Shown: positions 6,101-49,282, counted from the stretch's first letter. The stretch is DNA of 57,129 nt from Nemertoderma westbladi (GCA_032718475.1 JAUCBJ010006927.1:1-57129); one strand, 5' to 3'. Notes: generated by a model from the sequence alone, not told the origin. Translations and numbers: made by a program.

Positions 6101-6416
6101 CGGGATTCCAGTTATGTTGGCTCCGGAGTTGGGGAGGAACTGGAGCTTGCGGATGCCGAAGCAGGTGTTGGCGGCAACCTGGAACCCGACTGTGACGGTC
6201 TCCAGCGGCTCCAGCTGCTCCACGAGCTGCTGACACGAGTGGGGCATCAGTCAGTTCGGCGCTGGCGAGGAGGGACCAAACCTTGGCGAGGTTGGTCGAA
6301 GAGAAGTCGGAGTCGCTCTGAGTCGATATCGAATGGTGGGAGTGCGCTGCGGAGGATAAAAGTGAGAGGGTCGCGGTTGTACGCGCTGGGGCGGGTGCGT
6401 ATCCATGTTCAGTCAA
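3114..6416 (-). mobile_element. Degenerate Ty3/Gypsy (Mag-like) pol relic: protease, RT, RNase H and integrase, with many frameshifts
   Basis: Fragmented motifs on the minus strand: PNSGA (protease DSGA); RMPMG and IVEDILV (RT); LLTNASRLNGLG and ELEAL (RNase H); PFQRAHADIF and SSPYLAHTNGRAEAAVK (integrase). No paired LTRs found. Confidence 0.9.
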
Positions 6417-9140
6417 GTACTGCAGTAGGATCAGAAGATAGCAGTGACAGATAGTGGTTTTACAGTTTTAGGCAGTCAGGTGTGGCAGTTTGGGCAGTGA
6501 GTGTCACGGTAGGTTCGAGAACCAAAGCTGTAATATTCTACAGTATGAGACAATGTTGGGGGGGGGGAGGGGGGGGGGGGTTTAAACTCAATCAAAGGAA
6601 AAAATTTAGTAATTATCTAAGGGAATAATTTATTTACAGTAGGCCTACCTAGAGTGCTACAATATCTCAGGTTACAGTACCTACAGTTGTTATACAGTAG
6701 TACAGACAATATGTACTGTATTTAAATTTTCATTTGTACATTTTTGCAGTGAACAAAAAAAATATCAAACTGTCACAAATTAAACTGCATTTACATAAAC
6801 CACCAACCCCAACCCCAACCCCCCGACTCTACCTCAATTTGCAGAAAACTGAAATTATTGGATAGATATATGGTTTCTTATCTTAGAATAATCGATTAGA
6901 AACAGTTTACAATTTATTATTTTTAATAAATTCATAATTATGAATCATCTAATATGGTTGTAAATAAGATCAAACATATAGATTTTAATAATCGAATTAA
7001 TATTTTTTGGTGATCGCTTAAAGTTATATAGGATACTCCTAAGTCTTAATACATTATATATTCTGTTATTATACTCAAACGATTACATCTCAGTTTGTAT
7101 AGAGTATTGTAGGTGTAGGGCCGTAGGGTGTAGGCATAGGGTAAGTAAGGTAGGCTAACCACTCCAGCCCCCCCCCCCCCCCCCTCCCCTCATCTCTCCA
7201 CAGAGTATGCACAAGGAACGCCATGTGATTGGACAACGCGAATTTTTTTTAACCTGGGCAGCTATAAATGCCGCTAAATCCACGCTAAAGTGCCGCTAAG
7301 GAACCGCTAAAAACCGGATAATTATCCCGCTAAAAACGCCGCGATCGCGGGGACCACTTTTACGGCGATTATCCGGATATTATCTTATAAAAGTAGCGGG
7401 ATATTAGCAGGATGGTACATACATCCCGCTATTAGCGTGCTAATCGCTGGATATGTATTTGCGGGGGGGGGGGGGGGGGGGGGGGGTCTCTGCAAGCTAT
7501 CCTAGAAGAATTACAAATAGGAATAATGTATATAAGAATATGTAGACCTATATTGCTAACAATTAAATAGATGCTACATACTAATTAGACAAGTCATGGT
7601 GACATTTACTGTATTTTAATTTCCAATACTGGTGTTTACGAAAAGTTATAATTGGAGGGGGGTGCATGTTGATTGAAAGGCTGTTTGTTACCTTGACGAT
7701 CCAAATGAGAGTTCAAATGGGTCTGTATCTCTATATACAGCCGCGGTGGTCTGCATACTACTGTACTAATCGGGTTTATTGTAGAATTAATTCTAATTGA
7801 TTTAATTTGTAATTTTTTTTTTCAATACTGCTGAAGGAGAGGTAACAGTTAAAGTTCTATTTATATATTATCATTATTTATGAATTTTCTTCTGTTTTGG
7901 GTTCATTTTCTTTCACTTTTAACACTAAATGCAAGACTATATTTACAATGCAGGGCTACATACAGTACTTAAATACAACATTAAACAACAAAATAAATGA
8001 ACTTTATATTTATCAACCCGCAATATTTTTCAAATTCAATCGAATACTAAGGAAATTGGTGTGATCATAATTATACATTTTTTTACTACTGGTCTGGCAG
8101 GATGTTTCCCTTTTTCTTTACTACACAATGTTTACTACTACTTAACCACCTCCATCTCATATTTTGGATTTTGGAATATAATCTCGAGATCTCATTGGAA
8201 CTATCAACTTTATCTCCAGATTCCGAAACCGTTTTTAGCCCGTTTTCTATTTAGATGCAATACCGTAGCGACACCTAGCGGTTAATCGCTGCAAATAAAC
8301 TGTATAAAACATGGTGACCGAACATGCCGTTAGGCGTTCTCGAATTAGCGCACGTCCAGCTAGGTGACGGCTTTGTAGCTAAATCTAAATCGGGGCTTAA
8401 ATTCGACCGAGAATTGCGTGGCTAATTCGGTGGTGACACATCTAGGATCTTTTTAACGGCTTGATAAAGCGAAATAACTAGAAAAATTAGAAACCCGCCC
8501 AGGTCAGTACCGGTAGTAAGAAAACTATGTCGAACTTCCATCATTAGGAATGGAAGTTTTCCGGATATATGATTTATTGAGGAATTTTCCGATAGCCATT
8601 ATTAAGGAATAACTTTTTAATATAGTATAATACAGAATTGAAGCAGTATTATTATTATTTTTATGTATTATTTTATGGCTTTCTAGAACACTGAAATTTA
8701 ATTATAAATTTGCCTCCTGATATAATACTCATGAATTAATTTAAATATCGCTGTACAGCTCTGTTTGTAAATAAATGTGAATTTCTCAATTGCGTTTGAT
8801 AACTGGCAGATTGATTTATATTTCAGTTTTAGTTTATTTCAGTTATTATAGTTATAAACGAAAAATTATTAAAATCGTAAACTTTTCAAGAAAATTTCAG
8901 GTGTTTTCGGACTGTCATCGTTTGTAATATTATGGAAGACCTTGATGGCCTAAGTAAAACAAAAGTGGAACTAAGTGCATGGTACATGATTCTACTGCGG
9001 TATGGGCCTACTGCGGTACATGGCCTATTTGCTTCATAGTATTAGAATCAGGTTATATTTTGTAGAATGTAAATATATGTTATAGTTTAAATTATTCTTT
9101 TTTTTAAACTAATAAATAATTTTTACTAATTTTCTTTCAG

Positions 9141-10106: not shown

Positions 10107-10404
10107 ACTGTATTTCTAGTTGATCCGCTTATAAACACTCGGTTGCGTAGTTCGGACAGCTTCGTGTGGGTTGGGTCATCTTGTCAGTTTAAATGGCCTG
10201 AGATGACCCTACCCATTGGGGTCCAGCTTCGCAAACGAACTCGATCGCGAAAACTGCGGGTCTGTGCAAGTTTCTCCTAGCCTTGAGTTTACGCAAAAGA
10301 TTTCGTTGGCTAGTCAGAAACATTGGTTAACCAGATTCAATGTACAATAATATCTCTATAATTGTTGTTACGCACACATAAAGCAGCGCACAGTAGATTA
10401 TTGT

Positions 10405-10934
10405 TGTTAGCTTATTCAATCCCGCCAACACCCCATAAAGTTATTAGCCGATAAGCAATATTGGGAGCCACGAGATTGGGCAATTAACCAACTCGTGCCA
10501 TCCCAATAAGAATGGGAAGGAAGCACACAATAGAGGGTCAGGGGCCAAACCCCTAACCCAGAGAGAACAGGTGGAGTGAACGGGAATACTCCATGGGGCG
10601 CCAACAAGGGTATTAACCAATAAGAGGGGGGAATGGCATCGATTGAGTAGCAGTAAGGCCACCGTGCAATATAACCAATAACCTATTAATCAGTGATTCA
10701 GTTATCTCAGTGCAGCAGTGCTAGCGTAGGGTACAGCCAATTAGTTTAGTTAGGGGATCACGGGACTTTAGTTACCGTATCCCGCCTTGTACACATTCAC
10801 AATATATCTATATCCTGTAACCTCTTATTATACACCGAACTTCAGAACTCAATATTTCACTCTTATACACGGCGGGGACGCGTGGACTAAATACCACATC
10901 GGATAAATCGGGATCCCTCCTGGATCCCGTCACA
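10405..10934 (+). repeat. 5' LTR (530 bp)
   Basis: Matches 21494-21705 plus 23166-23483 with one substitution seen by eye (ccatgg vs ccacgg). Starts TGTTAG, ends GTCACA. Hairpin cgggatcc/ggatcccg near the 3' end. Confidence 0.95.
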
Positions 10935-11049
10935 GTAACTAAAACGGTGTTGCTTCCCCAGCTAAACTCAGTAACTAAAGACGAGCTGCCGCCCCAGTTA
11001 AACACAAAGAACTCCACCCTAGCTAGCCGAACCATCAGCCACAAACGAG

Positions 11050-14000
11050 ATGAGTGAGTCGGGCGAGACACCACCGCGGACCCCGGACGAAGACCTAACG
11101 ATCCGCGAGGCCGCGACCAAACGATACAGGCCCACGACGCCGGAGCCATCGATAACGGGCGAACCGGAAGCACAGGACGAGGAGGGCCTGGAACCCGAAG
11201 TCGAGCCAAGAGAGAGAGAGAACGAGGTCGAGGGAGAAAGAGACGAGTCGACACGAGACGGAGAACGGCGCGCCGATGTCGCCGGCCAGCTACCGGCCGA
11301 GGGCGACGAGCGGCCCACCGAAACGGCGACGGTGGGGCCGACGGTACGACGCCGGACGCGAAGAGACGGAGGAGAGATTGGTACCGATGTCGCCGGCCAG
11401 CTACAGGCCGAGGGCGACGGACGGCCCACCGGAACGGCGACGGTGGAGCCGCGGGTACGACGTCGAACCCGGAGGGCCGGAGGAGAGGTCGGCGACGAGG
11501 ACGTCGGGGTATCAGAGCGACTTCGACGGGCCTACAACGCGACCCGAAGGATGATAGAGGACGCCAAGAAGGAAGGGGCGAAGGTAGACGAGGTGAGACT
11601 GAGAAAGCGACTAGGTGAGTCGGATAGACACATAAATTACCTAATACGTTTTGGGCAAAGAGAACTAGCCGAAACGAGAGCACACGGGATTGCCGGGGAA
11701 CTGTTTGAACTATGGGAGTGTGGGAGTATGGAACCTAGTGTAGCGTCAGTGTACATAGGGCCATACTTGGTCAATGCCCGGGGAGTAAAACCAGTAGGCT
11801 GGAGGGAACCCGAAGGGGGCGAATCCGAGGTTAACCCCGAGGATTCGGCCTCGTCGGTCGGAGAAAGCTCCGGGAAGCGGGGGGGAATCAGTAGGTCGGG
11901 AAGGCGGGGGAAATCCGTCGTGACCGATAAGTCTGTTACATCCTCCGCGAAAGGAAGAGCGGTGAGAGAGATAGGTGCCGAATATCGCCTCAGCATGGCA
12001 GCGAAAGATCATAGAGAAATCAAGGAACGGCTAGAGGAAGGGAGAGTGCGGTTAGAAAGGGAAACGGCATTGCTTAAAGAAACAGGAGAGAGGGCAGAAA
12101 GGGCTTTGAAAAGCCTAAGGGAGTATGATGAGATAGAGGAAAGGGAGTGTAGGGAGCGTGAGGCGAGAGAGGAAAGGGGGCGCAAGGAGCGTGAGGCAAG
12201 GGAGGAAAGGGAACGCAAGGAGCGTGAGGCGGAACGCAAGGAGCGTGAGGCGAGAATGGAAAAGGAACGCAAGGAGCGTGAGGCGAGAGAGGAAGGGGAA
12301 CGCAAGGAGCGTGAGGCAAGGGAGGAAAGGGAACGCAAGGAGCGTGAGGCAGAACGCAAGGAGCGTGAGGCGAGAGAGGAAAAGGAACGTAAGGAGCGCG
12401 AAGTGAGACGAAGGGAGAGTATTAAGAGTGCTGCAGAGTCGGCCATTAGGGACACCCGGGAGCGTGAGAGAAGAGTGGCAGAGACTGAGGGAGAAAACAA
12501 GAAAATAGAGAGACAACAGAGTGAGTCTGCGGGAGATGAGATTAAACGGGCGCACGAGTTGCAACTCGTGCGAAGAGCGCCGTCTGAAAGCGGGGCCGGC
12601 TCGGGTATTTTTAGGGAGCCGGGGGCCGTAGAAACATTTATTAATACCCCACTGACAGGGACCGCACGACAGACTCAAGACTGGTGCGACCGTATGAGCG
12701 GGGGGGGTAATAATAATATTGGTACTGTAGACGTTGTTGATATTAATAGTACCGTATGGGATAACACTAATCAAACCTTTATTGCAGGAAATACTTTGCC
12801 TAGTGGTAGTAATTTAAATTTAAATCAGAACAATCCCAATACTAATGTAGAAAATAATCCTAATGTTGATGTAGTTACGCAAAATAATTCAAATAATCAA
12901 AATAATAATCCGAACTCGGACCTACAAAATAATTTAAATAACGCAATTACGCAAAATAATTCAAATAATCAAAATAATAATCCGAACTCGGACCTACAAA
13001 ATAATTTAAATAACGCAATTACGCAAAATAATTCGAATAATTTAAATAATGACCCATGCCCGAATTTACAAAATAACTCAGATAACGTAGTCGCGCAGAA
13101 TAATGCAAATGGTTTTGTCTCAAACGAGCAAATTGATTCCGTTTCTAATATAGGTGCTATTAATGCAAACAAGTCGGGCCTACATAACCAGGGAGCAGAG
13201 GGCCTGGTGGGCCACGTAGTTAGTGGACAGGGAGCAGAGGGCCTGGTAGGCCACGTAGTTAGTAGACAGGGAGCAGAGGGCCTGGTAGGCCACGTAGTTA
13301 GTAGACAGGGAGCAGAGGGCCTGGTAGGCCACGTGGTTGGTAGGGAGGGAGTAGAGGGCCTGGTAGGCCACGCAATAGCAGAGGGAGAGGCGGGGGTGAA
13401 CAGACCCGACCGTGGTAGGGTTGATGTGTCGACTAGAGAGGTATATAATAGCGGGGAAAGAGGTAGCGAAGTTAGATGTAGCGAGTGGGGGGGGGGGGGC
13501 TACGAGGGCCCCACAACAGAGAGTTAGCGGCGAAAAGGGGGGGGCAGAGAGTGTCCCACAGCCGTCAGCGGATAATGCGAGGGCCGAACAAGGTAAACCG
13601 CAACAACCGGCGACGGAAAGTAATAGGGGGATTGCGAGTATCCCCAGCGACGTGCGATCGAGCAGAGAAAGACAGGTTGACGTCGCGGGAGGGCAGACGG
13701 AGCGTCGAGCCCGATCAGAGGAGGAAAGAAGAACAGTGGGGCTTAACCGGGAGGTCGACGAGAGATCTCGTGAGCGGGAATATTCCACTGATAGGAGAAG
13801 AGAGGAAGACAGTAGTAGGAGTATCGCCGCAAACGATAGAAGAGCGAGGACGGACAGCGAGCCGTCGGTAGTCGAGATGAGAACAGAGAGTCAGTGGGGT
13901 CGGACTCCGGGAGATTGCCGTCGCCCCGGAGGGATGCGATCCGGTGAGACGCATTACACGGCGAGAGAGGGGTACGCGATGTACCGGTGCGAAGATGAAA

Positions 14001-14464
14001 ACAGTGGAGAGGGGGGTCGAAGAGAAACTTTCCGACGGAATATACCTACCGATCGAGAATACGGTAGCCGCGGGGAGGATTATTCGAGAAGAATAAACTT
14101 CAATCCCGAGCAACACATGCAGACTGTAGGGCATACTGTAGGTCATACTGCACATACCGTAGGCCATACTGAGAGAGGCAATGTAGGCGATAGGATAGCG
14201 CGGACAACGGGATTAAACCCGGAAGTCGCGGAATACATACCGGCGAGTAGGCCAGAAGCTGATAGGCCTATACCGGTACCAGCACAGCAGTATGACTACA
14301 GCGTGCAGGGACATAACATATACCCAGGGGAAGGGGGAATTATTGCGGATAGGTGCATGGGCCCCAACATATTAACATCAACCCCATTCCCAAACATACC
14401 GGTGTGGGGGGGGGACAGGGTGACATTCCCCCATCACAATATCAACAATATACCCCGATGGTAG
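11050..14464 (+). CDS. Long low-complexity N-terminal Gag extension (ORFs 11050-13527 and 13412-14464, joined across a poly-G tract)
   Basis: BEL-like PEDSASS motif, ERKEREAR coiled-coil repeats, Asn-rich tract and 13-aa GAEGLVGHVVSRQ repeats. The frame changes at G-runs near 13490 and 14410. Confidence 0.65.
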
Positions 14465-16338
14465 CAAGAACAACGAAACCCTTGGACGAAAACAGGTCGT
14501 GTGATACAGACATATGGAGGGGGCCGCTACCCCCGATGACATATCCGAGTCAGAGAATATCAAGAAATAGGACGGACGAACCGCACCAGACAGGGGAAAC
14601 TATACAGCACCCGTCGAATCCATTAGAAGCGCAGGCAATGGGGATGGCCACGTTGATCGATGCGTTGAAAACGAGGATCGAATTACCACCCGTGGAACCG
14701 TTCAAATTCGATGGGAGCAGGCCGGAAGAATACTTACAGTTTCGGCGAATGTATAGTAACGAAATACTAACAAAAAACTTGACGCAGGCGGAGTGCCTAA
14801 AATATCTACAAGTGTACACGGGAGGCCCAGCATACGATATCGTGAGGCAATACCAAGGAATAGAGGGCGGCTTCACGACAGCATGGCGGGCACTGGATAG
14901 GGAATACGGGCACCCGGCCAAGATCATCAGGCAGACGCTGAGAGGCATAACATCGGGTGGCCTACAGGATAACCCCGTTAGCATTAAGACGTTTGCTAAC
15001 AAAGTCGAGAAGGCGCTGATCGTGCTGAAGACGCTAGACGCGCCATACGAGCTCAACGCGTCCAATAACATCACCACGATAGCGCAGGCACTACCGAGTT
15101 GGCTGCGCAACAAATGGAGGAAGATCGCTTTCTCCACCCGAGACAAGAAGGGTGCGGAACCAGGTTTAGAAGAAATGTCAAACTTCTTAAATTACGAGGC
15201 CGAACTAATAACGGACCCAGTCTATAGTGAAGATAGCCTGGGAAAGGGACCAAAGACAGATCATTACAGGCCCAAACCAGAGCACAATACATCGAACGCG
15301 TTACCGAGACTCAGGCAATCATTGCCATATGCAGCGACGCAGGGGACTGCAAGTCCACAGACAAGCGAAGATAAAACAACATCAAGGGACGGACAGGGGA
15401 ACAATAACAACATGAATAAACATAACCTCAGTACGTCCAGTAGGCCAAATCCAGTCAATAAGAATAGTAGGGACTTTGGTACAAATATAACTGCGATACG
15501 CAACGCATTGTATAAAGAGGGCTACGACCCAAAGAGCAAATGCCAGTTACACGCAAATGCGCTTCATAAAACCATGAACTGCAGGTACTGGCAGGCGCTA
15601 CCGAGGCAAGACCAGATAGATTACGCGTCGAGCAATAAAATCTGCTCGCGATGTGTAAAGAGTGGACACAAGGCCAGGGAATGCCAAGAGAAGCCGGTCA
15701 AGTTTGGCCAAAGGAGAGGCCAGACGATGGCAACGAGCACAGTAGGGGCGAAGAGGAGAGGAACAGTGCTACTTGGAGTAGTACCAGTACGAGTGATCGG
15801 GGAAGGCAATCGATCAGTAACAACACTAATGCTGGTTGATAGTGGAGCTGCCTTCACATTAGTTGAGGAATGGGTAGCCGAAGAAATAGGGTTGAGAACG
15901 AGGCCAAGCAGGATGGCGGTGACAACCATCTCTAGCAAAGACGAGATCCTAGAGATGAGGACAGGACGGTGCGCAATTGCAGCAGTGGCACCAGGATGCG
16001 ATTATGGGGCAACAATCGACCCCATCCAAGTAATAGAGTCAATTAACATCAATGCCAGGCGGCCAACCAACATCGAGGTCGAGCAATACAAATTCCTGGA
16101 TAACATTGACTTCTCAATCCCAGACGTGGACGTTAGGAAGGTATCCATCATAGTAGGCATGGACTGCCCGACGGCCCACGAAAGAATGCAAACGGTCTTC
16201 GGCGAAGACAAGCAGAGCGACCCGGTGGCCATATTAACACCATTCGGGTGGACACTGACAGAGGCCCAATTAAGAGTAATATACCATTCCATGTGTCTGA
16301 GAGTTCAGGATGCATGGTGCCAGGAACTGACGAGATAG
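14353..16338 (+). CDS. BEL/Pao Gag core, zinc knuckles and aspartic protease
   Basis: LPPVEPFKFDG..EEYLQF..YLQVYTGGPA..AWRALDREYG is DUF1759-like. Knuckles CQLHANALHKTMNC and CSRCVKSGHKAREC; protease LVDSGA; BEL-typical PVAILTPFGW. Confidence 0.88.
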   Translation: MHGPQHININPIPKHTGVGGGQGDIPPSQYQQYTPMVARTTKPLDENRSCDTDIWRGPLPPMTYPSQRISRNRTDEPHQTGETIQHPSNPLEAQAMGMATLIDALKTRIELPPVEPFKFDGSRPEEYLQFRRMYSNEILTKNLTQAECLKYLQVYTGGPAYDIVRQYQGIEGGFTTAWRALDREYGHPAKIIRQTLRGITSGGLQDNPVSIKTFANKVEKALIVLKTLDAPYELNASNNITTIAQALPSWLRNKWRKIAFSTRDKKGAEPGLEEMSNFLNYEAELITDPVYSEDSLGKGPKTDHYRPKPEHNTSNALPRLRQSLPYAATQGTASPQTSEDKTTSRDGQGNNNNMNKHNLSTSSRPNPVNKNSRDFGTNITAIRNALYKEGYDPKSKCQLHANALHKTMNCRYWQALPRQDQIDYASSNKICSRCVKSGHKARECQEKPVKFGQRRGQTMATSTVGAKRRGTVLLGVVPVRVIGEGNRSVTTLMLVDSGAAFTLVEEWVAEEIGLRTRPSRMAVTTISSKDEILEMRTGRCAIAAVAPGCDYGATIDPIQVIESININARRPTNIEVEQYKFLDNIDFSIPDVDVRKVSIIVGMDCPTAHERMQTVFGEDKQSDPVAILTPFGWTLTEAQLRVIYHSMCLRVQDAWCQELTR

Positions 16339-17141
16339 AGGAGAGGCCAGAGATGGGCAATAGTGGTAGACAGCTAAAAGAAGAAGCAACACCAAGAGAG
16401 TGGGCGGAGGAGAATGGTATGGATGCAGAAGATCTAGAGACGATGGGTTGGAACAAGGGTCCCAGCAAGTATCGGTATGGAGATGGAGAGGAGCGGACGG
16501 TGGAGTGTCGGGAGGACAAACCGGAGAAGTGTCCGGTGGAGTGTCCAGAGGAGCGTCCGGAAGAGACGCCGGTCCGGTTGAGAGGCATACCGACAAGGGG
16601 GAAGCCGAGTAAGAATACAAGATGGAAAGGGAGAAGATGTGAGACGATGAGACCAGGGGCAGAGAAGCCCATGAATAAACATATGGTGGACAAAGGAGCC
16701 GGGAGAGTAGGAGGCGTGCAGCGTACGCACGCGGAACTGACAGAGTGCGAGGGGGCATTACATGCGCAGACATCGTGTATACCGAAGGACGAACGGGGGT
16801 CGTTGAAGCCTTTAATGCCAGCACACATATTAAGGGGGAGGCCAGCAGAGGTGACATCTAAGATTAAGGAGAAGAACAGGGGCGGCATTATACCGCCGGG
16901 TGACACGTTGAAGGGTGGCACTTTGCCGCCAAGGGACGACCACGAGATCAGAAACATAAATAACAGACAGCATTTGCCAAAACAGGAGAAAAGACCACCT
17001 ATCGAATTGACAAGAAGAGCGGAGCGAAGAATTAGAGAACCTATAGGGGGGCAGTGGGAGAGTTGCCTGCTGGAGGAATCACCCCTTGGGTCGCTGAGTT
17101 GTCCAACAGGTTGGACTGGGATGGAAGAGTTAGATCCGTAA
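16248..17141 (+). CDS. Unknown tail of about 290 aa, probably continuing gag-pro after a 2-nt slip (GWTLT-GPI); no RT motifs
   Basis: Restoring GWTLTGPI needs a frame change near 16261. No YxDD or other pol motif follows. Confidence 0.45.
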   Translation: MDTDRGPIKSNIPFHVSESSGCMVPGTDEIEERPEMGNSGRQLKEEATPREWAEENGMDAEDLETMGWNKGPSKYRYGDGEERTVECREDKPEKCPVECPEERPEETPVRLRGIPTRGKPSKNTRWKGRRCETMRPGAEKPMNKHMVDKGAGRVGGVQRTHAELTECEGALHAQTSCIPKDERGSLKPLMPAHILRGRPAEVTSKIKEKNRGGIIPPGDTLKGGTLPPRDDHEIRNINNRQHLPKQEKRPPIELTRRAERRIREPIGGQWESCLLEESPLGSLSCPTGWTGMEELDP

Positions 17142-17296
17142 AAGGTGCGGGCAGAGGTGTTACCTGTCTCTTAGAAGGAGCACCTTAGAGCGGAGTTAGT
17201 GTGGAGTTTAGTCGTCCAAGTTTTGGACTGAGGGGGGTGGGATTGAGGGCGAGACGCCCTTCCCACACAAAATAAAAATAAAATAAAATAAAATAA

Positions 17297-17733
17297 GAGT
17301 TAGTCAGTTAGTTAGTAGGTACGTAGTACCAATAGTTAGAGTTAGAGTTAGAGGGTACGTAGTACCGATAGTTAGAGAGTTAGCAGGTACGTAGTACCTA
17401 GTTAGAGTTAGAGTTAGAGGGTACGTAGTACCGATAGTTAGAGTTAGTAGGTACGTAATACCTAGTCAGAGTTAGAGTTAGAGGGTAGGTAGTACCGATA
17501 GAGTTAGAGTTAGTAGGTACGTAGTACCTAGTTAGAGTTAGAGTTAGAGGGTACGTAGTACCGATAGTTAGAGTTAGTAGGTACGTAGTACCTAGTTAGA
17601 GTTAGAGTTAGAGGGTACGTAGTACCGATAGTTAGAGAGTTAGTAGGTACGTAGTACCTAGTTAGAGTTAGAGTTAGTAGGTACGTGGTACCTAGCTAGA
17701 GTTAGAGTTAGGGGGTACGTAGTACCATTAGTT
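17297..17733 (+). repeat. Tandem array of about 13 GGTAC-GTA-GTACC hairpins spaced by GTTAGA repeats
   Basis: ggtacgtagtacc recurs about every 30-36 bp in alternating ..ccta and ..ccgata units, with a dimer period near 64 bp. Confidence 0.9.
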
Positions 17734-18241
17734 AGAGAGAGAGAGTAAGAGGTAAAAGGGGTAAAATAGGATATAGATATTAGTTAGTAGTAAGTAGAGT
17801 TAGTAGCGAGAGGGGGGCATATGAGTGCAGCTGGATAAATCGTGTGGCCACACGACGCATACTGCTGTACTGCATAGGCCCACTGAGTAGGCCAGAATAT
17901 GGATCAGAGAGAGAATAGAATAAATCCATAGGCAGTAGTAAGTAGTAGGACAGTAGAATCAAAGCAAAATAAAATAAATAAATAGAATAGGGCTAAAAAT
18001 CGGAAAATAGTGGTAACACAAGGAAAGTCGTTCTAGAACATAATAAAAGTAACGGACAGAAATTGTAAATTAGGCTGATTTACTAGCTCCGAAATTAATT
18101 AGGTAAAACTTAGCTTGAAAGGCGCAATTAAGTAGAAAGTAGGCCATTATCGAACTGTACGAAACATCCTAAATACTTCACTCATCTGTATTGCGCCTTG
18201 GTAAGGCACCACCCTACAGGTGAGCGAGTGTAGTGTTCGGA

Positions 18242-20773
18242 ATGGCGAGTAAGCTGATCAGGAAGAGAAAGGCGGAGTCAGGAGGAAAGGAAATATTGGT
18301 GGATTTCACCGAAAGACACCCGGAGGAGAAGACGAGAGGATACTACGAGAGGTTGGAAAGGGGTCACGCGGCACGAGCGCTGCAGGATCACTTCCGGGAG
18401 GCGCACGAACAGCGGTTGGTCGGGACCTACGGGACGCCGTCGCTGGACAACGCGATCTTCCAACACTTCCACTACGTGGTGAAAGGAGACGAGGCGAAGT
18501 TCGGGATTCCGAAGTATCCGAGGGAATCGCCGAGGAAGGACTGGAAAAGATTCATAGAGTCCGTCAACAGAGGAGGATATATGATCCTAGATGACGAGGG
18601 AACCGTGGAAGACGAAGCGGGTTCGAGACGAGGAACGGCAGGGTCGGCCAGGACCATACTCTTGCATTTGGCAGCGCCAAATGGGGACATCTTCTTATTC
18701 GACCTAGGGACGTATGGGAAGAAGGACGGGCCGAAATTAGACCGACTGCCGAAAGCGGTACAAGTCTTAGTAAGAGAGAAGTCGACGACGAAAGTGGGAT
18801 CGGCGATTCGCGAGGACGCGGAGAGGATCATCGGTCCGGACGCCACCAACCTCCTGGATATGCAGAAAGTCTTTATGGCTATGACGGCACCGGATGGATT
18901 GGGGGTGGTCGAGAACTCAGGCCAATGCGGGGCGGTGGCGATGGGCCAACTATTGGGGCTCGTATGCCACAAACCAATGGATTGGGGGAAGTTTAGGGAA
19001 GAATACGGAGCAGAACTAGCGAACTCGCTGAAGTGGGGAGCGAGACCGGGAAAGCAGGAGGTATATCAGTTTCGCAGAGGAGCGATAAAGGTATATCAGA
19101 AGCGATATATCCTGCAGGAGGACTGGATGATGATAAGTTTGCTTAACTTATTCATGACCGTAGTTATCGAAAGGGAACCAGGGGCATTTCTGTTATCGGG
19201 ATCACCCCTAAGCTACAGGAGAGCCTTTAAGACGGCCTTTGACGGTCTGGTAGACCACCCGGGGCTGAAGGGCGAGTCGGTGTACTACAACAGCCGACAT
19301 CTGGTAGATGGGGAGACAGATACACCGTATCAGAGATGGGAGCAGCTAGAGATGGATAGACGGGAAGCAAAGCGACTGGAAGAAGTCTCTAGACGGGAGA
19401 GGATAGAAGCAGAGGAGAGGGAAGAGGAGGCCAGAACACAGAGTTATGGCTTCGAGGAACAGGCGGGTCTAGACGAGCTTCATTGGACTTCGTCAGGGAG
19501 TTCGGGGGAGTCTCTAGGACGAGAATTGGGATGGACGGTGGGATCGCCGAAACAGTCGACGTTGGGGTTGCAAACGATGCCCATACCAGCGGGCGCCGAG
19601 GGCGACCAACCGCCAAGGAAGTTAAGGGAGCTAGAGGGATGGAGAGCTACGGGCGAGAGCCAAGGCGGGAAGGGACATAGTGGATCCATCGGGATACCGG
19701 GATTGGAGACACTACCAGAGGAGGACGACGACGACGAGTTCGGAGAGATGCCGCCCATCGAAAGGATAGGCCACTCGGACACAGACTGGGTTGGCGGAAG
19801 GGTGGTGACGGCCAGTGGGGCGAGGGCCTTCTGGAACAGATCCGGCAAGCGGACCTGGGTGCACGAGGAGCCGGCGATGGATTTCGCGGGGAGCACCATC
19901 AGGTTGGGCGAGCAACCGGGAACGGCACCACGGATAGTATTCGGGGAGACGATGCCCGAGAGGGGCGGAGAGATAGACGTAAACAGGGAGAGCAACGTAG
20001 AGAAGTTCGCCTACCAGCGACTCCATAGACCGCGGAGATCGCTTGGGACGAAGGACGAGGTGGGACGGGAGACATTGGTACTCGGCTGCGACTACTGTGG
20101 GAGACAGACCCATCAGGAAAGCAGCTGCCTATACCGGTTCCAACGGGGAACCTTTTGTCTCTACTGTAGAGAACCAAGTCACAGGATGGGGGCGTGTCCA
20201 CGGTTGCATAACCGATGTCCAAAGTGCCACTTTCGGGGACACTACGGACGCGAGTGCGACTGGATGAGCGACGAGGAGAAGTTCACGAGGTTCGAGGAGT
20301 GGGCCGACGTCGGGGCCATGACGCGCCAGCGCATGAAGGCCCAAGAGTTCAAGTGGGGTTTCTTCCTCATAAACCAGGAGACCCACATGGAAATCATAAA
20401 GCGAAGGTTACCGTTTACCTATCAAGAGGTAGCTACGGCGGCATCGTTCGCCGGAGTTATGAACACGCAACGGTACCTGGACAGGTGGACACCAGAGAAC
20501 CGGAGGGAGTTTAGGGATTTCTTGGCGGAACACGTACCAAAGGCAATGAAAATGATCCTATGGGACGCCACACGAGGGAGACAACCAGGCCATTCTGAGG
20601 GGCCACCGGCGAAGCGGTATCGGGCATTAATAACACCAGCGCCCAAGGAGCCGACGACCGGGATCAGCAAGGAAGTGGCGGCAAAGGTCCGGAAGCAGAA
20701 AGCGGATGATGCCAGAGGAGCGGTGATAACCAAGAAACGGGCCAGGGAAGAGGACGTGAGGAGGAACAGATAG
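18242..20773 (+). CDS. 843-aa protein: DEDDy (WRN/EXD/RNase D-like) 3'-5' exonuclease domain plus three CCHC zinc knuckles
   Basis: ExoI ILDDEG (near 18590); LLHLAA..IFLFDL..LPKAVQVLV..KVGSAIRED (ExoII); LLDMQ; QKRYILQED (ExoIII-like). Knuckles CDYCGRQTHQESSC, CLYCREPSHRMGAC and CPKCHFRGHYGREC at 20087-20257. Uninterrupted ORF with basic NLS-like termini. Confidence 0.8.
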   Translation: MASKLIRKRKAESGGKEILVDFTERHPEEKTRGYYERLERGHAARALQDHFREAHEQRLVGTYGTPSLDNAIFQHFHYVVKGDEAKFGIPKYPRESPRKDWKRFIESVNRGGYMILDDEGTVEDEAGSRRGTAGSARTILLHLAAPNGDIFLFDLGTYGKKDGPKLDRLPKAVQVLVREKSTTKVGSAIREDAERIIGPDATNLLDMQKVFMAMTAPDGLGVVENSGQCGAVAMGQLLGLVCHKPMDWGKFREEYGAELANSLKWGARPGKQEVYQFRRGAIKVYQKRYILQEDWMMISLLNLFMTVVIEREPGAFLLSGSPLSYRRAFKTAFDGLVDHPGLKGESVYYNSRHLVDGETDTPYQRWEQLEMDRREAKRLEEVSRRERIEAEEREEEARTQSYGFEEQAGLDELHWTSSGSSGESLGRELGWTVGSPKQSTLGLQTMPIPAGAEGDQPPRKLRELEGWRATGESQGGKGHSGSIGIPGLETLPEEDDDDEFGEMPPIERIGHSDTDWVGGRVVTASGARAFWNRSGKRTWVHEEPAMDFAGSTIRLGEQPGTAPRIVFGETMPERGGEIDVNRESNVEKFAYQRLHRPRRSLGTKDEVGRETLVLGCDYCGRQTHQESSCLYRFQRGTFCLYCREPSHRMGACPRLHNRCPKCHFRGHYGRECDWMSDEEKFTRFEEWADVGAMTRQRMKAQEFKWGFFLINQETHMEIIKRRLPFTYQEVATAASFAGVMNTQRYLDRWTPENRREFRDFLAEHVPKAMKMILWDATRGRQPGHSEGPPAKRYRALITPAPKEPTTGISKEVAAKVRKQKADDARGAVITKKRAREEDVRRNR

Positions 20774-21455
20774 GTTCCCGGAGACGAGGGAACGAGGGAG
20801 TGAGACTGAGACTGGAAAGTGGTGCGCCTGGAAGGCGCCGCATGGAACGTACGAACTATTAAATACAAATTTATTTAATTAATGCAAATAACCATATAAG
20901 TGCAATTCGTATGTACGTACGTAGTAATTAGCAGTAAAATACATACGTTTGGAGTAAGTACTATAGTCATACAACCTTTCTCAACTAGCTAGTGGGACTG
21001 GGGGGAATAACTGACTATGGCACTATGGACGAGACAACTGACAATTTCATACTTCTCGAGTGCGACGGCACGAGAGGGGGGGGAGGTTCGTCAGGAGAGA
21101 TAAAACAGCAGAAGTGAGGTTGAGGGACGCAGTGATAGAGTGGAGTGCAAAGAGAGTGCGGACGCGATTCTAGAGTGTGGGGGGGGAGAAGAAGAGGCTG
21201 AGTAGGGACGAGGAGGTCCGAGTGTGAGAGAGTTAGGGTGAGAGTGAAGGTGAGATAGGGCGAAAGTGTTGGGGAAACAAAAATCGCGTGAAGAGGTGAG
21301 CGCGATCGGCCCGACATGAGGCGCCAGGCACACAGGGTAGCGTTATCATACCCATAGGGGGCGGCCTGGAAAGCCGGCTCCTAGAGAAAAGAATTCCACC
21401 CCACACCCGATACTAGATCGGGATCCAGCGGGATTGTAACGCACTTTTTTGGTTG

Positions 21456-21493
21456 ATGCTATCTTCTTACCGGGAAGATAGCATGGGGGGGAG
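21456..21493 (+). promoter_or_regulatory. 11-bp hairpin followed by the polypurine tract of the LTR element
   Basis: atgctatcttc-ttaccgg-gaagatagcat, then gggggggag directly before the TGT of the 3' LTR. Confidence 0.8.
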
Positions 21494-23483
21494 TGTTAGC
21501 TTATTCAATCCCGCCAACACCCCATAAAGTTATTAGCCGATAAGCAATATTGGGAGCCACGAGATTGGGCAATTAACCAACTCGTGCCATCCCAATAAGA
21601 ATGGGAAGGAAGCACACAATAGAGGGTCAGGGGCCAAACCCCTAACCCAGAGAGAACAGGTGGAGTGAACGGGAATACTCCACGGGGCGCCAACAAGGGT
21701 ATTAACCCTTTAAGTACCGATACCACAAATTTCTGAACATATGGTGCGCCGACCAAAATACCACCGGCAACAAATGGTTTTCACAGCATATATTTTGACA
21801 TAGAATCGGCAATATTGTACAACAATTATATACAATAGATATATAATATATTTTATATATATATATATATATTTTTTATATATATATATAATATAATATA
21901 ATATATATTTTCGTAAAACAATGTAAACAATTATTGAAGATTTATTAATAATACGTTTGATAACATTATTATATTACAAACCGACATTTTTGTGCCATTC
22001 ACCAGCACAACCAATACATAAACAGGGTTTATATGGACAATCTGGGCAATAACACCCTGTAAGTACATTTTTACCTTTTGCATAGCAAACATGACAACGA
22101 TATCTAGGCTTATGAACCTTACTAGTTGGGGGTAGAAGTTTTATTGAATGCAGCGTCGAATTGTCGGAATCTTGTGAAGTAGATTGTTGGTCTGTCAGGT
22201 AAGATGTTGCAGTACGCTTCAATGGGCTCGCACACTTGATACCAGTCAACCACAGGACTGCTTTCTTTATAAATGGAACCAATCGTTCTTTGCTGTTCTT
22301 TTCCCGTTTATAAAGAAGAAATGCATTGATTAGTAAACGCATCATAAAACTGAAACCAATTTTTTTAAACCATGCGTGGCTTTTTCTAACCGGATTGTAA
22401 TACGCAATAAGTTGGTCTTGTACATCTACGCCTCCCATTTTCTTATTGTATTGGTCAATGGTCGTTGGCTTATCATAATCGATAGTATCACCTCCCCGAA
22501 CAATGCGAGATTTAGGAGTCAGATCAGCGTCGTCGACAGTCGATAAAATCGATTCCTCCTACCCACCCAACCGTTCCAGTAAAAGGAATAAAGTGGTTCG
22601 TAGCATAGGCGTCGGTTCCTGCCTCCACAAAGTTCCACGTCCAAGTACTGGTGCTGGTATTACTACTGTAGAATCGCTACTGTCACTCTCGCTTCCACTG
22701 CTACTCTCATCATCGTCGGTTTCACCTTTATCTCCTCCGGATTCGCTTCCATCGCCACCAGTTTCACTTTCGTCCGATAGCACCTCATCCTCACTTTCCC
22801 GGTGAAAAACATAATACTTGACAGGGTTCTTCCTCCTAACAGGCCTACTCATCCTAACTAGGCCTACTTAAAAAATTAATGAAAACACCCCACAATTCAG
22901 CAATTACTGAAGTAGAAGAGTGTCAGTACTGCAGTTGTAGGTGTGTTCAGGTGTTGTACCGGTTCATGAGCAGGAACATGACATCCAGACTTTATTTAGG
23001 TATCAAATGAAAGCCTAATGCGCGGGCTATTCGAAATGAGTGATTATTTATGCGCTGTACCTACCTATGGACCCGTAGTAACACATTAATGTCATGGATC
23101 AACATCTGATCCATGGCGCACTATGTCATGGATCACCTGTTGATCCATGGGACTCAAAGGGTTAACCAATAAGAGGGGGGAATGGCATCGATTGAGTAGC
23201 AGTAAGGCCACCGTGCAATATAACCAATAACCTATTAATCAGTGATTCAGTTATCTCAGTGCAGCAGTGCTAGCGTAGGGTACAGCCAATTAGTTTAGTT
23301 AGGGGATCACGGGACTTTAGTTACCGTATCCCGCCTTGTACACATTCACAATATATCTATATCCTGTAACCTCTTATTATACACCGAACTTCAGAACTCA
23401 ATATTTCACTCTTATACACGGCGGGGACGCGTGGACTAAATACCACATCGGATAAATCGGGATCCCTCCTGGATCCCGTCACA
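21494..23483 (+). repeat. 3' LTR interrupted by a piggyBac insertion
   Basis: The 212-bp and 318-bp segments reconstitute the 530-bp LTR around a duplicated TTAA. Confidence 0.95.
21706..23161 (-). mobile_element. Internally deleted piggyBac transposon (1456 bp)
   Basis: TTAA TSD at 21702-21705 and 23162-23165; imperfect TIRs ccctttaagtacc/gggactcaaaggg. The acidic N-terminus (22559-22852) is joined to the C-terminus MGGVDVQDQ..WFKK and a Cys-rich domain (21974-22438). Most of the catalytic core is missing. Confidence 0.92.
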
Positions 23484-23599
23484 ATTGTAATGTACTACAA
23501 TAGTGGGAGCGGCGTTGCCTATCTACGTATCAGACCCATAACAGATTGCCGATATCAATGTGGCACGAAAAACTTTCAGTTTCACATCTGTACAAATTG

Positions 23600-27395: not shown

Positions 27396-28392
27396 TACAG
27401 ATCCTTGCTAAGGAAATACCACTATCCTTAGCAAGTGATAATTAGGGGTCAACTCCATATTGACCCCAAACACCGGGTTCATAAGAGGCCACATTTCACA
27501 AAATCAGCCGTCAGAAACACTCGGCCTTGTAGATGGCAGCCCCCTGGCCCGCTATCTTGGCTCAGTTTCTCAGCAGTCGGGCTGGACTGTTCCTATACTC
27601 TCCTTTACTTCGCCTAGTATCGGTGGGGCTTAGGAGCGTGGCTAGTTCCCGCTGAGAACCGAGCATGTGGCCAACCAGCCCTCTAGCTAAAACTTGCGCA
27701 CTCTGCCCGCAGACTCATTGGAGCGACCTTTGGACAAACCTAAGTCGGAGGATAAAGTAGCAGCTAACTTTCGGCGTCCAATTCGGTCGCACCCCCGTTT
27801 GGACACAGAAGGTAACCTGGTGTTTGCACTATTGCCAAGTTTATTACAACTGTTTTAGAAACCTATTTTCATTTTAGACCTGTTAGACTGTTAGACATTT
27901 TAGACTGTTAGTATTTAAGTCCAGAAACGACTAAAATACTATATTTTGTGTATTATACTTTTGGTTACAATTATATGGATTGTATAATTTTTCGATGTTA
28001 TACTTTGGTTCCTAACGGACCCAAACCACCCCTCATCCGGTTTCTGTTTTTCCCTCTTCCCGGAGGTTTTTCTATGGTGTTACGTACCGTAGGTAGTATG
28101 ATAATAAGTAAGACAGGGCAATAACCAGCAATATAATGTCTATATTATTGTTATTTATAGATAGGCATAAAGTTATTGGAATATAAGCAATAATCTTATA
28201 TATGTAATCCGGTTCATTACGGTCAGACGGTACCAACCTACCGGTACTGCAATATTACCCTAGGCTAATAAGTAGTTAATTATATATCTAAATATATTCA
28301 GTTTAAATTTACCGCCCTTTTATATTAAGGGGCTAGGCCCTATAATTGATCCTATACCAAGTCCTTCTTTTTTTTTTTTTTTTTTTAATGAG

Positions 28393-31300
28393 TTAGTTAC
28401 TGCCACCAAAGTGATGATAGTTTAAACGATTTGGTATCTTTCGTTCACGTTGTGGTGAATCCTTTTGTACTTTATGGTCCATTATCGTTGACTCTCCCTT
28501 CTCTCCAGATAGTGGTATGGATGGAGATGCCTTTATATCATTTGGTGTTCTTAGGTCTTTCAGCACTTGTCTTAGGTGTCTTCTATTACGCCATAACGAA
28601 TGTCCATTTTCAAATCGAAGTAGATAGCAACGTTTGTTTTGTTCGCTGCGTATAACTTCAGCCAAACGATCCCAATGTTTGGTCTTTGGGTTCTGTACCC
28701 GAACAAGGTCGCCCTTTGGGATTTCTACGAGTGGGGTTGTGGAGTAGTCGTAATAAACTTTTCTCTTTTGGTCATTTATGATGCGTTTTTCATTCGCAAT
28801 GTCAAATTGTGATGAATGGTCTGGGATGTATGATTCCTTATTAGAGGGAACTCGGGAATGCAATGGTCTTCCAAATATTCGTTGGGCTGGTGATAAACCA
28901 TCTGCCCGTGGACCATTTCGCAACTCTAACAATCCACTGAGGAAATCATTGCTGTTGATATCACCACCACTTTTGGCTAGAAGGCCCTTAACCATCTTGA
29001 CAATCATTTCCGCATGTCCATTGCTTTGTGGATGGTAAGGAGATGAAGGCCTCCACACAACACCCCATTCCTTGAGGAACTGTTGAGTTAAATAAGCCTT
29101 ATATTGTGGTCCTCTATCGCTGCGTAAAATATTTGGAATACCCATAAGAGCAAAATTATATCGAAGGATGGAGACAACCTCTGAAGCAGTAGGATCATGA
29201 TCGAATTTATCTACTAGAGGATACCCTGACCATCTATCCGCATATACTAAGTAATGTCGTCCTCCATATTTAAATAGGTCCAGGTAGCCATTTCGAATGG
29301 TCTAGTGGGCATAGCTTGTTCTTGGATAAGAGGTTCTGGTGGATTTGAGGAATGATACCGTTGGCATTGTTCACACAAATCTAAAGTTGTCTTAATGTTG
29401 TTCGAAATACCGGGCCAATATACTGCCTGACGGGCTCGACGTTGAGTCTTCTGAATTCCTTGATGACTGACATGCAGTCGTTTTAGGACATCCTTTATGG
29501 CATTGGGAGGTATGATTATACGTGGGCCCCGGAACACAAGTGAACCCGAACTTGTTTTATCCACTGAGAGCTCCTCAGAAATTTTACTAAATTGACGGAT
29601 ATAAGAATTAGAGTTATCCGCAACTGACCCATTTATGACTGCCTCTACTAAGGCCCTGTAATCCTTACAGATGTTCGCTTGGGCTCTAAGAGAATCCAAT
29701 ATGAGATCTGGAACAACATCGGATATTGCTTGTTGGATTACGTTCACATGGATCTGAGATTCATGATTATGAACTGGGGTCATGTCATCTTCTTCTGGAT
29801 CACTGACTGGGGCTCTCGATAATGCGTCAGGAATCGCATGTTTCGATCCTTTCCTCCATGACACAGTAAAATTGTATGTTGCAAGTTTAGCACGATAAGC
29901 CTGTACCTTGGGATTCTCGATTTCAGCCATACTGTATTTATTGAATAATGATTCAAGGGGTTTGTGGTCTGTAATAACTGTGTAGGATGCCATTCCTGCT
30001 AAGTATACATGGCATTTCTGTGTGGCCCACAATATGGCCAATGCTTCAAGTTCTATAATGGCATATCGAGATTCCACATCCTTCAAAAAACGACTTCCTG
30101 CCTGTATAAGGCGCCAGTGTTCATCTTGTTTTTGAAGTAGTGCATATCCCAATCCATGTAGTTTACTAGCATCAGTTTCTAACATTGTCTCTGCCTGGGG
30201 GTCATACATTCCAAGTACTGGTGGGGATACCAAGGCTTGTTTAGTTGCTATAAATGCTTTATCATTAGAAGGATTCCAAACAAATTCATATTTTGTGGAC
30301 AAGAGTTCTCTAAGAGGTCTTGCTGCACTTGAAACTTCTGATGAAAATGACCCAAGTTGATTAACCAATCCCATGAATGAACGAAGGTCCGTTCTAGTGG
30401 TTGGGGTTGGGAAATCTGCAATTGCTGAAAGTTTTTTGCCATCTGCCCCAATTGAGCCATGTGTAATCTCATAACCCACAAAGGTAATCTTCTCTGCACA
30501 TAGGATGGACTTTACTTTGTTTACCGTAAAACCGTGCCGTGCGCATCTTTCTAAAACTTCACAGACTAATCGAATAAGGTCACGAAAGTTGGAATGACCC
30601 ATCCCTATATCATCTACTACTTTGTGGACTTTTAAGTCGTCCATTGCAGCGTCACCCCTCTGAGAGAACGAGTCTCCTGTTGAGATAAACCCCATTGGGC
30701 TACGAAGGAATTTATGTCTACCCCATGGGGTGATAAATGTCGTTAGTTCCTGGCTGTCAGCATGGAGGGGCATTTGCCAATACCCTTTAGTGAGGTCTAT
30801 CTTCGCAAAATATCGGTCATTCCTATCAAACCCTGATACTGCCTCTGTTGGGGTCTTTGTAGGGTATGTTGATCGGATAACCTGACCATTCAGTTTTGTC
30901 AGATCAACTGTAAATCGGATCTCTGATGATCCGGGTTTAGGAGCGATGACAATGGGGTGACACCATGTTGTAGGTTTGTCACCCAGGGGTTCAACTATAC
31001 CCCGTTTTACCATATAATCCAGAGCTTCCTTGGCCTTCTCTCGGTATGCATATGGGATCTGTCGTGCTGAATGAATCGCATATGGAACAGCATCCTTTTT
31101 GAGTGTAATTTTCATTGGCTCTCCTACTACCGGTCCACACATAGGCTTCAACGTATCTGTGTCATCAAAAACTACTGCATACTTTATATGAAGCATTTCT
31201 GATACCTCCCTAAATGTTTTCGATGTTGGTTCATTGGGTAATGTAGTTATCCAGGTTTCTCTTTCAGACCATATTTCTTTATCTAGTTTGCGTGGTTCCA

Positions 31301-33050
31301 ATTTTAATGATTTGGATTCATCTATTATATTGAAACCCGACTCATTGTTATTATAATTAAAAGTCAAAGAATTTATATCAGCAGTTTCTTCTGCCGTAGC
31401 CTGGACTGACTCAGACCCAATCTTACTCCCATTACCAAAAATGGTTTCGTTAGGAGTAGGTTTAGTTTTTTGTAGTGGTTGTGGAAAGTCGTGGTTAACA
31501 ATTGCGAATCCCTTGCATGCTTCCAAAGATAAATAGAAACCTTCAATATTATAACAAACAACTATTGTGTCTTGTACACTGTAACCATTTGCCGATAATG
31601 CTGCCTGAAATGTCCCAGCTTGAATGAGGGGCTTATTATCAATGGCTAAAATCTCCAGTCTAAGAGGTGGCTGAAGATAAATCCTTTCAGCCAATCCTGA
31701 GTGTTTAAAATCAGATATCCCCATAACTGTAACCCCTGCCCAAGTATCGGGCCAAGCTGGGTGAGCATACCTCTCACCATTTTCTATGGTAATTGTTACA
31801 GGTAAATAGTCAGAGGTCCGTTTCATAGAAGCTATAGTAAGAGAATCTAAATGACTTACGTTGAGCCTCCTTGGATTTTTGCGGCATACCGTTCCAAAGT
31901 GTCCTTTTTTATTACAAATTGTGCATATTGCTTTCCGGGCTGGGCAGTTATGTTGGCCCGATCGATATTCTCCGCAATGTGAGCAAACTGCTTTTCCAGA
32001 AGAAAAGTTCCCCACAGGACCTGCTGTTTGGCGTGTTTTGTACGCTGTAGGTTTGTTTGCATATACCCCGCAGCTATTATAATTTGACCCACCTGAATCC
32101 TGACCAATCTGGTGTGCCCCTTTTCGAGATGTTTCCAGATTTGTAAGGAATGTTCGTGCTGCAGCAAAATTTGGTGGGTCTTTTGCCATTAGCTTAGCTC
32201 GATCCTCGTCGCTTTGAATGGCTTGCACCAGTAATGCTGTATGCAGACGATCTTGTGTTATAGCTGCAGTATCTGCATAGTCCCCTAACTCTACAATTTC
32301 ATTGCAAATATGGACAATAGACTGGTTGTCTTTTTGTCTAACAGCTAACAAGTCTTTCATATCCACATGGCGATTACGTAATTCTCGAAGATGTCGAATT
32401 ATTGTTTCCAATATGTCACTGACATCGCGACCGGTGTTTGCTGGGATACCTAAAGTGTTATGTACAGTGCGGAGGAACCCAGGTGAGCAGCATTCCCATA
32501 AGGCCGCTACCTGTACCGTTCTTGGTCTCTTTCCTAGTTCCATTAAAGCCGCATAATTTTCCCATAACGCTTGCCATGCCTTAAACCCCCGGAAGTCGAT
32601 ATCTTCCTCCAGACTTTGTGGGCGTTTAGCCGAAAAACGTGGCAACTCCTGAGAAATGGGTTGTACGTGGTCTGGTAGTAGAGGGTTAGATATACTCATG
32701 TTAGCTGTAGAGTTATTTATTCCTTGTTGAGTTCGCCGGGCTTCCAGATCCCGTCGAATTCCCCGCACTTTGGCTGTCGCCTTTGACAAACCCATCTCGT
32801 GTTTGTAAAGTTCGGGGTCTGCATCCGTCGACTCGGCCAAAGGATGTGCTATAACCTCATTCTCTGCTGTCTGGTACTTTTCTACCTTAACTTTCCAATC
32901 TTCAACAAGGACTTCCAAGTAATCCGGGTCTTCATCCCAGTCATACTCCTGTATAGCATTATCAAACATGTTTGAGGATCTTGTACAGGCTGATTTATAA
33001 CCTGCTCTTGAAGATTTCAGCTTTGAGACCTCGACACGTGATGCTGACAT
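28393..33050 (-). CDS. Gag-Pol polyprotein with a 1-nt frameshift near 29281 in integrase
   Basis: Knuckle CTICNKKGHFGTVC; protease PDTWA (DTGA mutated); RT KIDLTKGYWQ and VVDD; RNase H ETDAS, ELEALA and TDHKPL; integrase HHCC, SDRGPQY and HPQSNGHAE. Confidence 0.92.
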
Positions 33051-33176
33051 TATGTAACTTACTTTTTGGACTGACCTGGTTTATTTTTGTATAGATTCAG
33101 AAATTATTATTTCCCCTCAATATGTTAGTTATGTTGTTATCGCCTTAGAATTTCATCTTCTAACTGAGGTCAACAA

Positions 33177-33188
33177 CTCGCAGCGCCA
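33177..33188 (-). promoter_or_regulatory. Primer-binding site TGGCGCTGCGAG, probably tRNA-Ser
   Basis: Immediately follows the 5' LTR on the minus strand and resembles the complement of tRNA-Ser 3' ends. Confidence 0.7.
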
Positions 33189-39669: not shown

Positions 39670-39782
39670 TTAAACACCACGATTTAGCGCAGGAATTTGG
39701 CATTTTTAATAGCCCTCCGAGATGTAGCCCGTAGCCCAAGCTAGGGAGGAGTACGCTCAGGACTATGTTTCTCCTACTACTA

Positions 39783-49268: not shown

Positions 49269-49282
49269 ATATTTCCTAACAG

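Follow-up and report, generated by a model that had tools for sequence, protein, structure and literature searches.

A predicted DEDDy exonuclease joined to zinc knuckles and carried by a deep BEL/Pao retrotransposon lineage

DEDDy exonucleases are encoded by the third open reading frame (ORF3) of the bdelloid rotifer LTR elements Juno1/2 and Vesta2/5, and also in Athena/Terminon (Rodriguez et al. 2017, PMC5408684); two other papers cite, in the text available, only this rotifer case (PMC6431247, PMC6338049). The accessory ORF considered here, from an LTR element of Nemertoderma westbladi, resembles the rotifer ORF3s in being a separate frame after pol, in the env position, of the DEDDy type and devoid of a transmembrane segment. 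It differs in its host, a BEL/Pao element rather than Juno or Vesta, and in its three zinc knuckles, whereas only a Cys-His-Cys motif, and no C-terminal knuckle module, has been described for the rotifer proteins. Set side by side by description, the rotifer ORF3 carries a DEED change, whereas the present copy reads DEDE.

A close parallel in domain order is TbRND, the RNase D of Trypanosoma brucei (PMC7797062; PDB 7c42-7c4c), which the accessible portion of its description presents as a DEDD exonuclease followed by tandem CCHC fingers that bind RNA and raise trimming. TbRND is, according to the same text, a cellular mitochondrial enzyme with four fingers placed after a 28-residue linker, whereas the accessory ORF has about 270 helical and disordered residues ahead of its three knuckles and a helical tail behind them; the likeness is probably convergent. 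Another transposon-borne DEDDy exonuclease occurs in Dada, but there, as far as the consulted part of the report goes, the domain sits inside the DDE transposase of a DNA transposon (PMC3706591). BEL/Pao elements in general share with the present one a DUF1759 capsid, a CCHC motif, a protease and TG..CA LTRs; the differences are the extra non-env ORF and the absence of reverse transcriptase (RT), RNase H and integrase. Undescribed environmental BEL clades have been reported from plankton in a paper whose available sections leave an exonuclease gene unmentioned (PMC5029228). In the literature searched, subscription journals and Repbase aside and some sources in part only, we found no report of an exonuclease ORF in BEL/Pao, nor of any LTR element in which an exonuclease is fused to knuckles.

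The window, a stretch of 57,129 nt from N. westbladi (GCA_032718475.1 JAUCBJ010006927.1:1-57129), contains an LTR element at 10405-23483, delimited by self-comparison, which carries the accessory ORF (Table 1). The corresponding empty site is seen in a contig of run X2 that joins 10399 to 23484.

Table 1. Features of the element and of its accessory ORF (positions in the window)
Feature	Position	Strand	Basis or remark
5' target-site duplication ATTGT	10400..10404	.	identical 5-mer at 23484-23488
5' LTR, 530 nt, TG...CA	10405..10934	+	99.5% and 99.4% identity to the two 3' LTR pieces
Primer-site position, two 36-nt units	10935..11003	+	first 9 / 10 nt complement LTR 10766/10767-10775
BEL/Pao-type gag and aspartyl protease	11050..16260	+	Pfam; three frames in the present copy
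Tandem array of a 66-nt unit (6.5 copies) ahead of the accessory ORF	17310..17737	.	
Accessory ORF, 843 aa	18242..20773	+	open frame, intact
Predicted DEDDy exonuclease-fold domain, residues about 59-345	18416..19276	+	structure match, profile, conserved columns
Predicted catalytic codons	D117 18590, E119 18596, D192 18815, Y289 19106, E293 19118		
Disordered linker, residues 400-610	19439..20071	+	pLDDT < 50
Three CCHC knuckles (616-672) and conserved helical subdomain (677-778)	20087..20575	+	pLDDT 78-97
Polypurine tract	21485..21493	+	purine run adjoining the 3' LTR
3' LTR, split by a 1456-nt insert (21706-23161)	21494..23483	+	self-comparison

The element has the marks of BEL/Pao, namely TG..CA LTRs, a 5-bp duplication, a gag with a DUF1759 capsid (PF03564, E 3e-11) and one CCHC, and an aspartyl protease (PF13650, E 2e-5). 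A pol profile built from 16 BEL/Pao polyproteins matches the element at 14698-16260, stopping where the protease ends, and with this profile no RT, RNase H (Peptidase_A17) or integrase was found in any of the six frames of the element. Since gag-protease and the accessory ORF are present and the pol enzymes absent, the element is a young, non-autonomous derivative of a BEL/Pao LTR retrotransposon, an assignment that the first-pass annotation did not make. Tens of thousands of variant contigs map to it in two runs, which points to a large family, although their summed depth does not give a copy number; by all appearances the family is highly repeated and has been active recently. The first-pass annotation had called the accessory ORF the only lesion-free long ORF of the element, which is literally true; two breaks in gag, however, fall in G runs whose length varies between the three related copies that the window contains, and dN/dS for the capsid is 0.03 against the copy at 47-49 kb, so the accessory ORF is not the sole gene under selection.

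Several observations concern the surrounding sequence. The insert in the 3' LTR, perhaps piggyBac-like, has CCC...GGG ends and a TTAA duplication, looks non-coding and is covered by contigs at a depth far below that of the element. The 66-nt array occupies the place of the pol end in relatives and is a possible promoter or binding array; Rfam returned no match anywhere in the element. Truncated relatives of the gag region lie at 39781-41871 (minus strand, 77% identity) and 47052-49269 (plus strand, 90%), both without the exonuclease ORF. A Gypsy-type LTR element on the minus strand (28094-33474) has 286-nt repeats that are 97% identical and an RT, RNase H and integrase spread over two frames, while a 1.5-kb inverted repeat (38099-39568/45589-47057, 95% identical, composed in part of 163-nt subunits) encloses a piece of gag and, at 42504-42812, one from the end of a BEL integrase. 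A gene segment for a fibrinogen C-domain is present in three dispersed copies that are 89-93% identical (480-1343, 35871-36596 and about 49265-51500), which would by themselves suggest an animal host.

The primer region of the element is unusual. TGG primer sites pair with the ends of tRNAs, and no such tRNA-type site is present in 10935-11050. Directly behind the 5' LTR stands a perfect complement, ending at the LTR boundary, to 9 nt within the LTR, and the second 36-nt unit contains a 10-nt exact complement; LTR complements of 9 and 10 nt occur in shuffled sequence at frequencies of 0.0014 and 0.0003, respectively. Tf1 is a self-priming LTR element, and the LTR-complementary region offers a lead for Tf1-like self-priming in a BEL/Pao derivative; the literature search, covering some sources in part, found no published self-priming case in BEL elements. 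An ordinary TGG site follows the 5' LTR in 22 of 25 relatives, which rules out, at the level of the family, an exonuclease that serves self-priming.

The accessory protein consists, in order, of the DEDDy exonuclease-fold domain, a charged helix, the disordered linker, the zinc-knuckle module and a helical tail. Its gene occupies the place of env as the last ORF ahead of the polypurine tract and 3' LTR and, as the first-pass annotation had it, lacks the signal peptide and membrane anchor of an envelope gene: the N-terminus is, on inspection, basic and not signal-like, and there is no transmembrane-like segment, the best 19-residue Kyte-Doolittle mean being 1.3 (it reaches 1.8-2.1 in 5 of 33 relatives). 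The linker, initially described as acidic, is disordered but only mildly acidic, with 33 D+E vs 22 K+R in residues 401-600. Likewise, the three perfect knuckles are real in this copy, where exact CX2CX4HX4C motifs begin at residues 616, 639 and 659, but they are not a family trait, since among the matches listed the exact spacing of knuckles 1, 2 and 3 is kept in only 20, 3 and 11 of 119 loci. Ten Cys/His/Gly columns of the module are invariant across 34 sequences, and the family core H-x4-C-x2-LH-x2-C-x2-C-x2-RGH was found in 65 of 84 proteins. In the Atlas feature search the zinc module scored below 0.9, and fold searches were dominated by the exonuclease domain. Basic clusters resembling nuclear localization signals, defined by an ad hoc pattern, occur in 29 of 33 relatives, against 13.9 in shuffles.

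Searched by itself, the accessory protein matched no Pfam family and no sequence in the PDB, so that the exonuclease call needed its relatives. Divergence explains the failure to reach the cut-off of PF01612: none of the 42 aligned domains matches this family at E 0.01, and two of the 42 relatives fall just short of it, at E 6e-5 and 3e-4. A first indication came from the Atlas feature search, in which a cluster with PF01612 in half of its members scored 0.94. A profile of the whole protein family matches EXD2 (E 4e-10), both domains of trypanosome RNase D, Egalitarian and WRN, and with a profile of the exonuclease domain only (42 rows) the best sequence match is again EXD2 (E 2e-12). An AlphaFold model built from a 34-row alignment (the single-sequence model reached a pLDDT of only 31) has two confident parts, about 95-335 and 611-778, on either side of the disordered linker, with the exonuclease core at pLDDT 85-95. 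In agreement with the DnaQ-like fold proposed at the outset, the best Foldseek matches to this model are all DEDDy exonucleases, with VIA Z scores of 13.8 for Aedes Nibbler (7jw2; rmsd 3.3, 203 aligned), 13.6 for an NrnC-type enzyme, 13.4 for TbRND and 13.1 for WRN. Egalitarian, including its complex with I-factor RNA, is among the top matches, and the structurally nearest group includes both Nibbler and Egalitarian. The scores for Nibbler, NrnC, TbRND, WRN and polymerase proofreading domains are, however, tied within 1 Z, so that the fold does not discriminate between RNA and DNA.

EXD2, the WRN exonuclease, Nibbler (Mut-7) and Egalitarian share with the accessory domain the fold and the order ExoI-III, from which it departs by an identity of only 11-16%, an insertion between ExoII and ExoIII and a Glu in ExoIII; no HRDC domain was found with Pfam in the accessory ORF or the relatives searched. 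The motifs D117-x-E119, D192, Y289 and E293, recognized beforehand as being in the order of WRN, EXD and Mut-7, all fall in columns that are conserved across 72 rows of the family. The spacing of ExoIII, which had been considered atypical, turns out to be the normal Y-x3-E, with Glu in place of Asp; in the column of E293, 39 of the 72 rows have D and 21 have E, and the D-to-E change at the last acid is common to 7 of the 42 rows that have four acids. We thus predict a DnaQ-like DEDDy exonuclease fold for the N-terminal domain; the protein may have the metal-dependent 3'-5' exonuclease activity of this group. Profile and predicted fold both support the original description, in which a transposon carries a DEDDy exonuclease that goes structurally with WRN, EXD and Mut-7 and is joined to zinc knuckles.

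A phmmer search against 1.84 billion representatives returned 75 proteins at E 0.001 or better, and a local iterative profile found the N-terminal domain also in 34 of 74 relatives examined; P0042 (a repeat artefact) was left out, as were the partial P0001 from the tree and L071, a chance match on a gene-dense contig, from the knuckle census. With the single sequence, word-index homologue searches and scans of viral and metagenome contigs for related loci gave nothing, and neither did a pattern scan of viral contigs; no close cellular homologue appeared in the word-index and phmmer searches. A nucleotide pattern representing the conserved zinc motif recovered at least 120 loci in metagenome contigs, 80 of them with flanks, while the 40 with flanks of only 300 nt were left out of the context counts. 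Among the matches listed, the exonuclease domain lies upstream of the zinc motif in 60 of the 80 flanked loci, and a BEL/Pao RT-integrase lies upstream on the same strand in 36 of the 43 with at least 1.5 kb of upstream sequence, counts that are not of independent events because many loci come from few assemblies and some rows are near-duplicates. The other seven comprise one chance match, three whose flank is filled by a long extension of the ORF at its N-terminal end or by its remains, and three without pol, two of them identical. Relatives carry RT, Peptidase_A17, integrase and DUF5641, and a Pfam scan of 19 neighbouring ORFs detected Peptidase_A17 in 18, the remaining one being a gag-protease piece.

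Over 19 loci with both parts among the matches listed, identity spans 28-86% for RT-RNase H (median 42%) and 9-88% for the exonuclease (median 22%), and the two rise together (rho 0.85, a value reached in 0 of 2000 permutations), and the RT and exonuclease trees agree in their main groups. At the level of sequence this shows long joint inheritance of the exonuclease gene and RT, which is not proof of function, and by the same comparisons the accessory ORF is a lineage-wide gene carried after pol by a deep BEL/Pao lineage.

Variation in architecture was seen within the family. At L005 (all) and L051 (oriented 2452-7107) the accessory ORF takes 1550-1600-aa forms with a long N-terminal extension, and in P0001 the zinc module is duplicated within one protein. 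At three loci (L047, L056, L059) a BEL/Pao pol precedes a zinc-module ORF without an exonuclease match at E 0.001, whose N-terminal domain would appear to be either very diverged or replaced. An identical 507-aa member occurs at three more (L008, L032, L072), with no pol detected 1.3-2.3 kb upstream; this copy is possibly non-autonomous or domesticated.

Selection on the gene is evident in the variants. Among 40 of the 46 differences in 18560-19160, 33 are synonymous, against an expectation of 12.6 +/- 2.9 for 40 differences (0 of 3000 simulations reach 33), and the differences listed leave the catalytic residues unchanged. Among the matches listed, 15 of 17 variants across the accessory ORF are synonymous, at sites partly shared with the former set. 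All five catalytic residues are kept in 40 of 72 rows, the present copy included, while ExoI is lost in 28, of which 19 lie in a single clade that coincides with one RT clade of complete elements (3 of the 75 rows, which do not extend over ExoI, were left out). Ratios of dN/dS, taken from pairs that are close neighbours and hence non-independent, range from 0.03 to 0.32 in seven pairs without the active site and from 0.09 to 0.56 in nine pairs with it. The accessory gene, including the clade without catalytic residues, is under purifying selection, the outcome of the dN/dS check that had been suggested for it, and no sign of positive selection was seen. Because a lineage has lost the catalytic residues while its domain stays under purifying selection, catalysis appears to be optional, and RNA binding is the likely core role of the protein.

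These results narrow the range of functions. Complete elements can lose the active site, so reverse transcription is unlikely to depend on a cutting step; optional catalysis, tRNA-type primer sites and retention of the gene without RT or integrase together favour an RNA-directed accessory role. The persistence of the gene alongside gag in an element that has no RT, RNase H or integrase points to RNA rather than cDNA as the target, as do the knuckle and RNase D architecture of TbRND, which binds and trims RNA, and the presence of Nibbler and Egalitarian in the structurally nearest group. The parts predicted to be constant across the family are an RNA-end-binding fold and the zinc module. Our first-ranked reading, tentative as it is, is an accessory protein that counters silencing by trimming or shielding RNA 3' ends. 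Such a protein would be expressed from its own message, probably spliced, for which a candidate acceptor lies shortly before 18220; its knuckles would be likely to grip single-stranded RNA, and the zinc module would feed the RNA 3' end to the two-metal site in the manner of TbRND. The substrate would be RNA of the silencing pathway, either slicer-cut fragments of the element RNA or, alternatively, piRNA or siRNA precursors prior to 3' methylation, and in the lineage without an active site binding alone would serve this purpose.

Host relatives of the fold (Mut-7/Nibbler, EXD1) act in small-RNA and piRNA pathways. Against a counter-silencing role, mature piRNAs are 2'-O-methylated and resist 3' exonucleases, and genes for counter-defence are often under positive selection, whereas only purifying selection was seen in the accessory ORF. 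The best sequence match, EXD2, the inclusion of DNA exonucleases in the structural ties and the failure of the protein to match any Pfam family also count against it. An arenavirus exonuclease, in the available part of its report, dampens host defence (10.1101/2021.02.01.429129), but no clear link between the DEDDy ORF3 and copy number was found in rotifer elements (PMC5408684). The fuller version of the counter-silencing reading is more doubtful: an old animal BEL/Pao lineage would encode a knuckle-guided, Nibbler/EXD-like nuclease that disarms piRNA/siRNA silencing, one sub-lineage being a catalytically dead binder, in parallel to the path from nuclease to pseudonuclease among host piRNA factors.

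The second-ranked explanation, which we consider rather unlikely, is an adaptor for the element transcript, acting in export, germ-cell transport or packaging as an Egalitarian-like binding platform for which catalysis is secondary. It would account for purifying selection on a domain without catalytic residues and for retention of the gene with gag in the RT-less family, and it fits the place of Egalitarian and its RNA complex among the fold matches; the active-site residues of Egalitarian are, in the text accessible, dispensable for RNA localization (10.1101/2025.08.03.668247). A pure adaptor would not, however, need the five catalytic residues that 40 of 72 rows keep over deep divergence, and no motif for binding a motor or Gag was identified in the accessory protein.

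Less probable again is a replication cofactor that trims the primer or the 3' end of the RNA, or else edits the 3' ends of cDNA ahead of integration. The intact DEDDy site, the equally good matches of WRN and polymerase proofreading domains and the primer site complementary to the element's own LTR would suit it, and 3'-end processing has been proposed for the DEDDy domain of Dada in the part of that report consulted (PMC3706591). This has to be set against an entire RT clade of complete elements without the active site, the ordinary TGG sites of most relatives, and an accessory ORF that is separate from pol and is retained where RT and integrase are gone. Accordingly, of the functions proposed by the first-pass annotation, primer processing and cDNA editing are weakened, and the counter-silencing nuclease keeps the first place.

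A self-limiting or host-serving factor, which would degrade RNA of its own or competing elements and so restrain copy number, appears improbable to a still greater degree. Host relatives of the fold do act in silencing, and the option was raised for the rotifer ORF3s (PMC5408684), but the present family looks highly repeated and recently active, with LTRs 99% identical, an empty site and very many variant contigs, and selection for a self-harming gene in mobile copies would be hard to sustain. A recently captured host gene in neutral decay, finally, which the first-pass annotation had named as a finding that would overturn its own reading, is refuted by the synonymous excess and dN/dS, the BEL/Pao context, the old joint divergence with RT and the lack of a close cellular homologue.

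The kind of gene to which the accessory ORF belongs, a DEDDy ORF3, was thus already known from rotifers (PMC5408684), a precedent absent from the first-pass annotation; as far as our searches reach, its BEL/Pao host superfamily, the fused zinc module, the co-divergence with RT and the selected pseudonuclease branch are new. Little is known of the means by which LTR retrotransposons of animals counter piRNA and RNAi defence, and what third genes other than env do has been a standing question since the rotifer report. The elements described here provide a large natural series for it, in which dozens of diverged BEL/Pao elements carry the same gene, the sets with and without an active site are both under selection, and a family without RT has kept the accessory gene.
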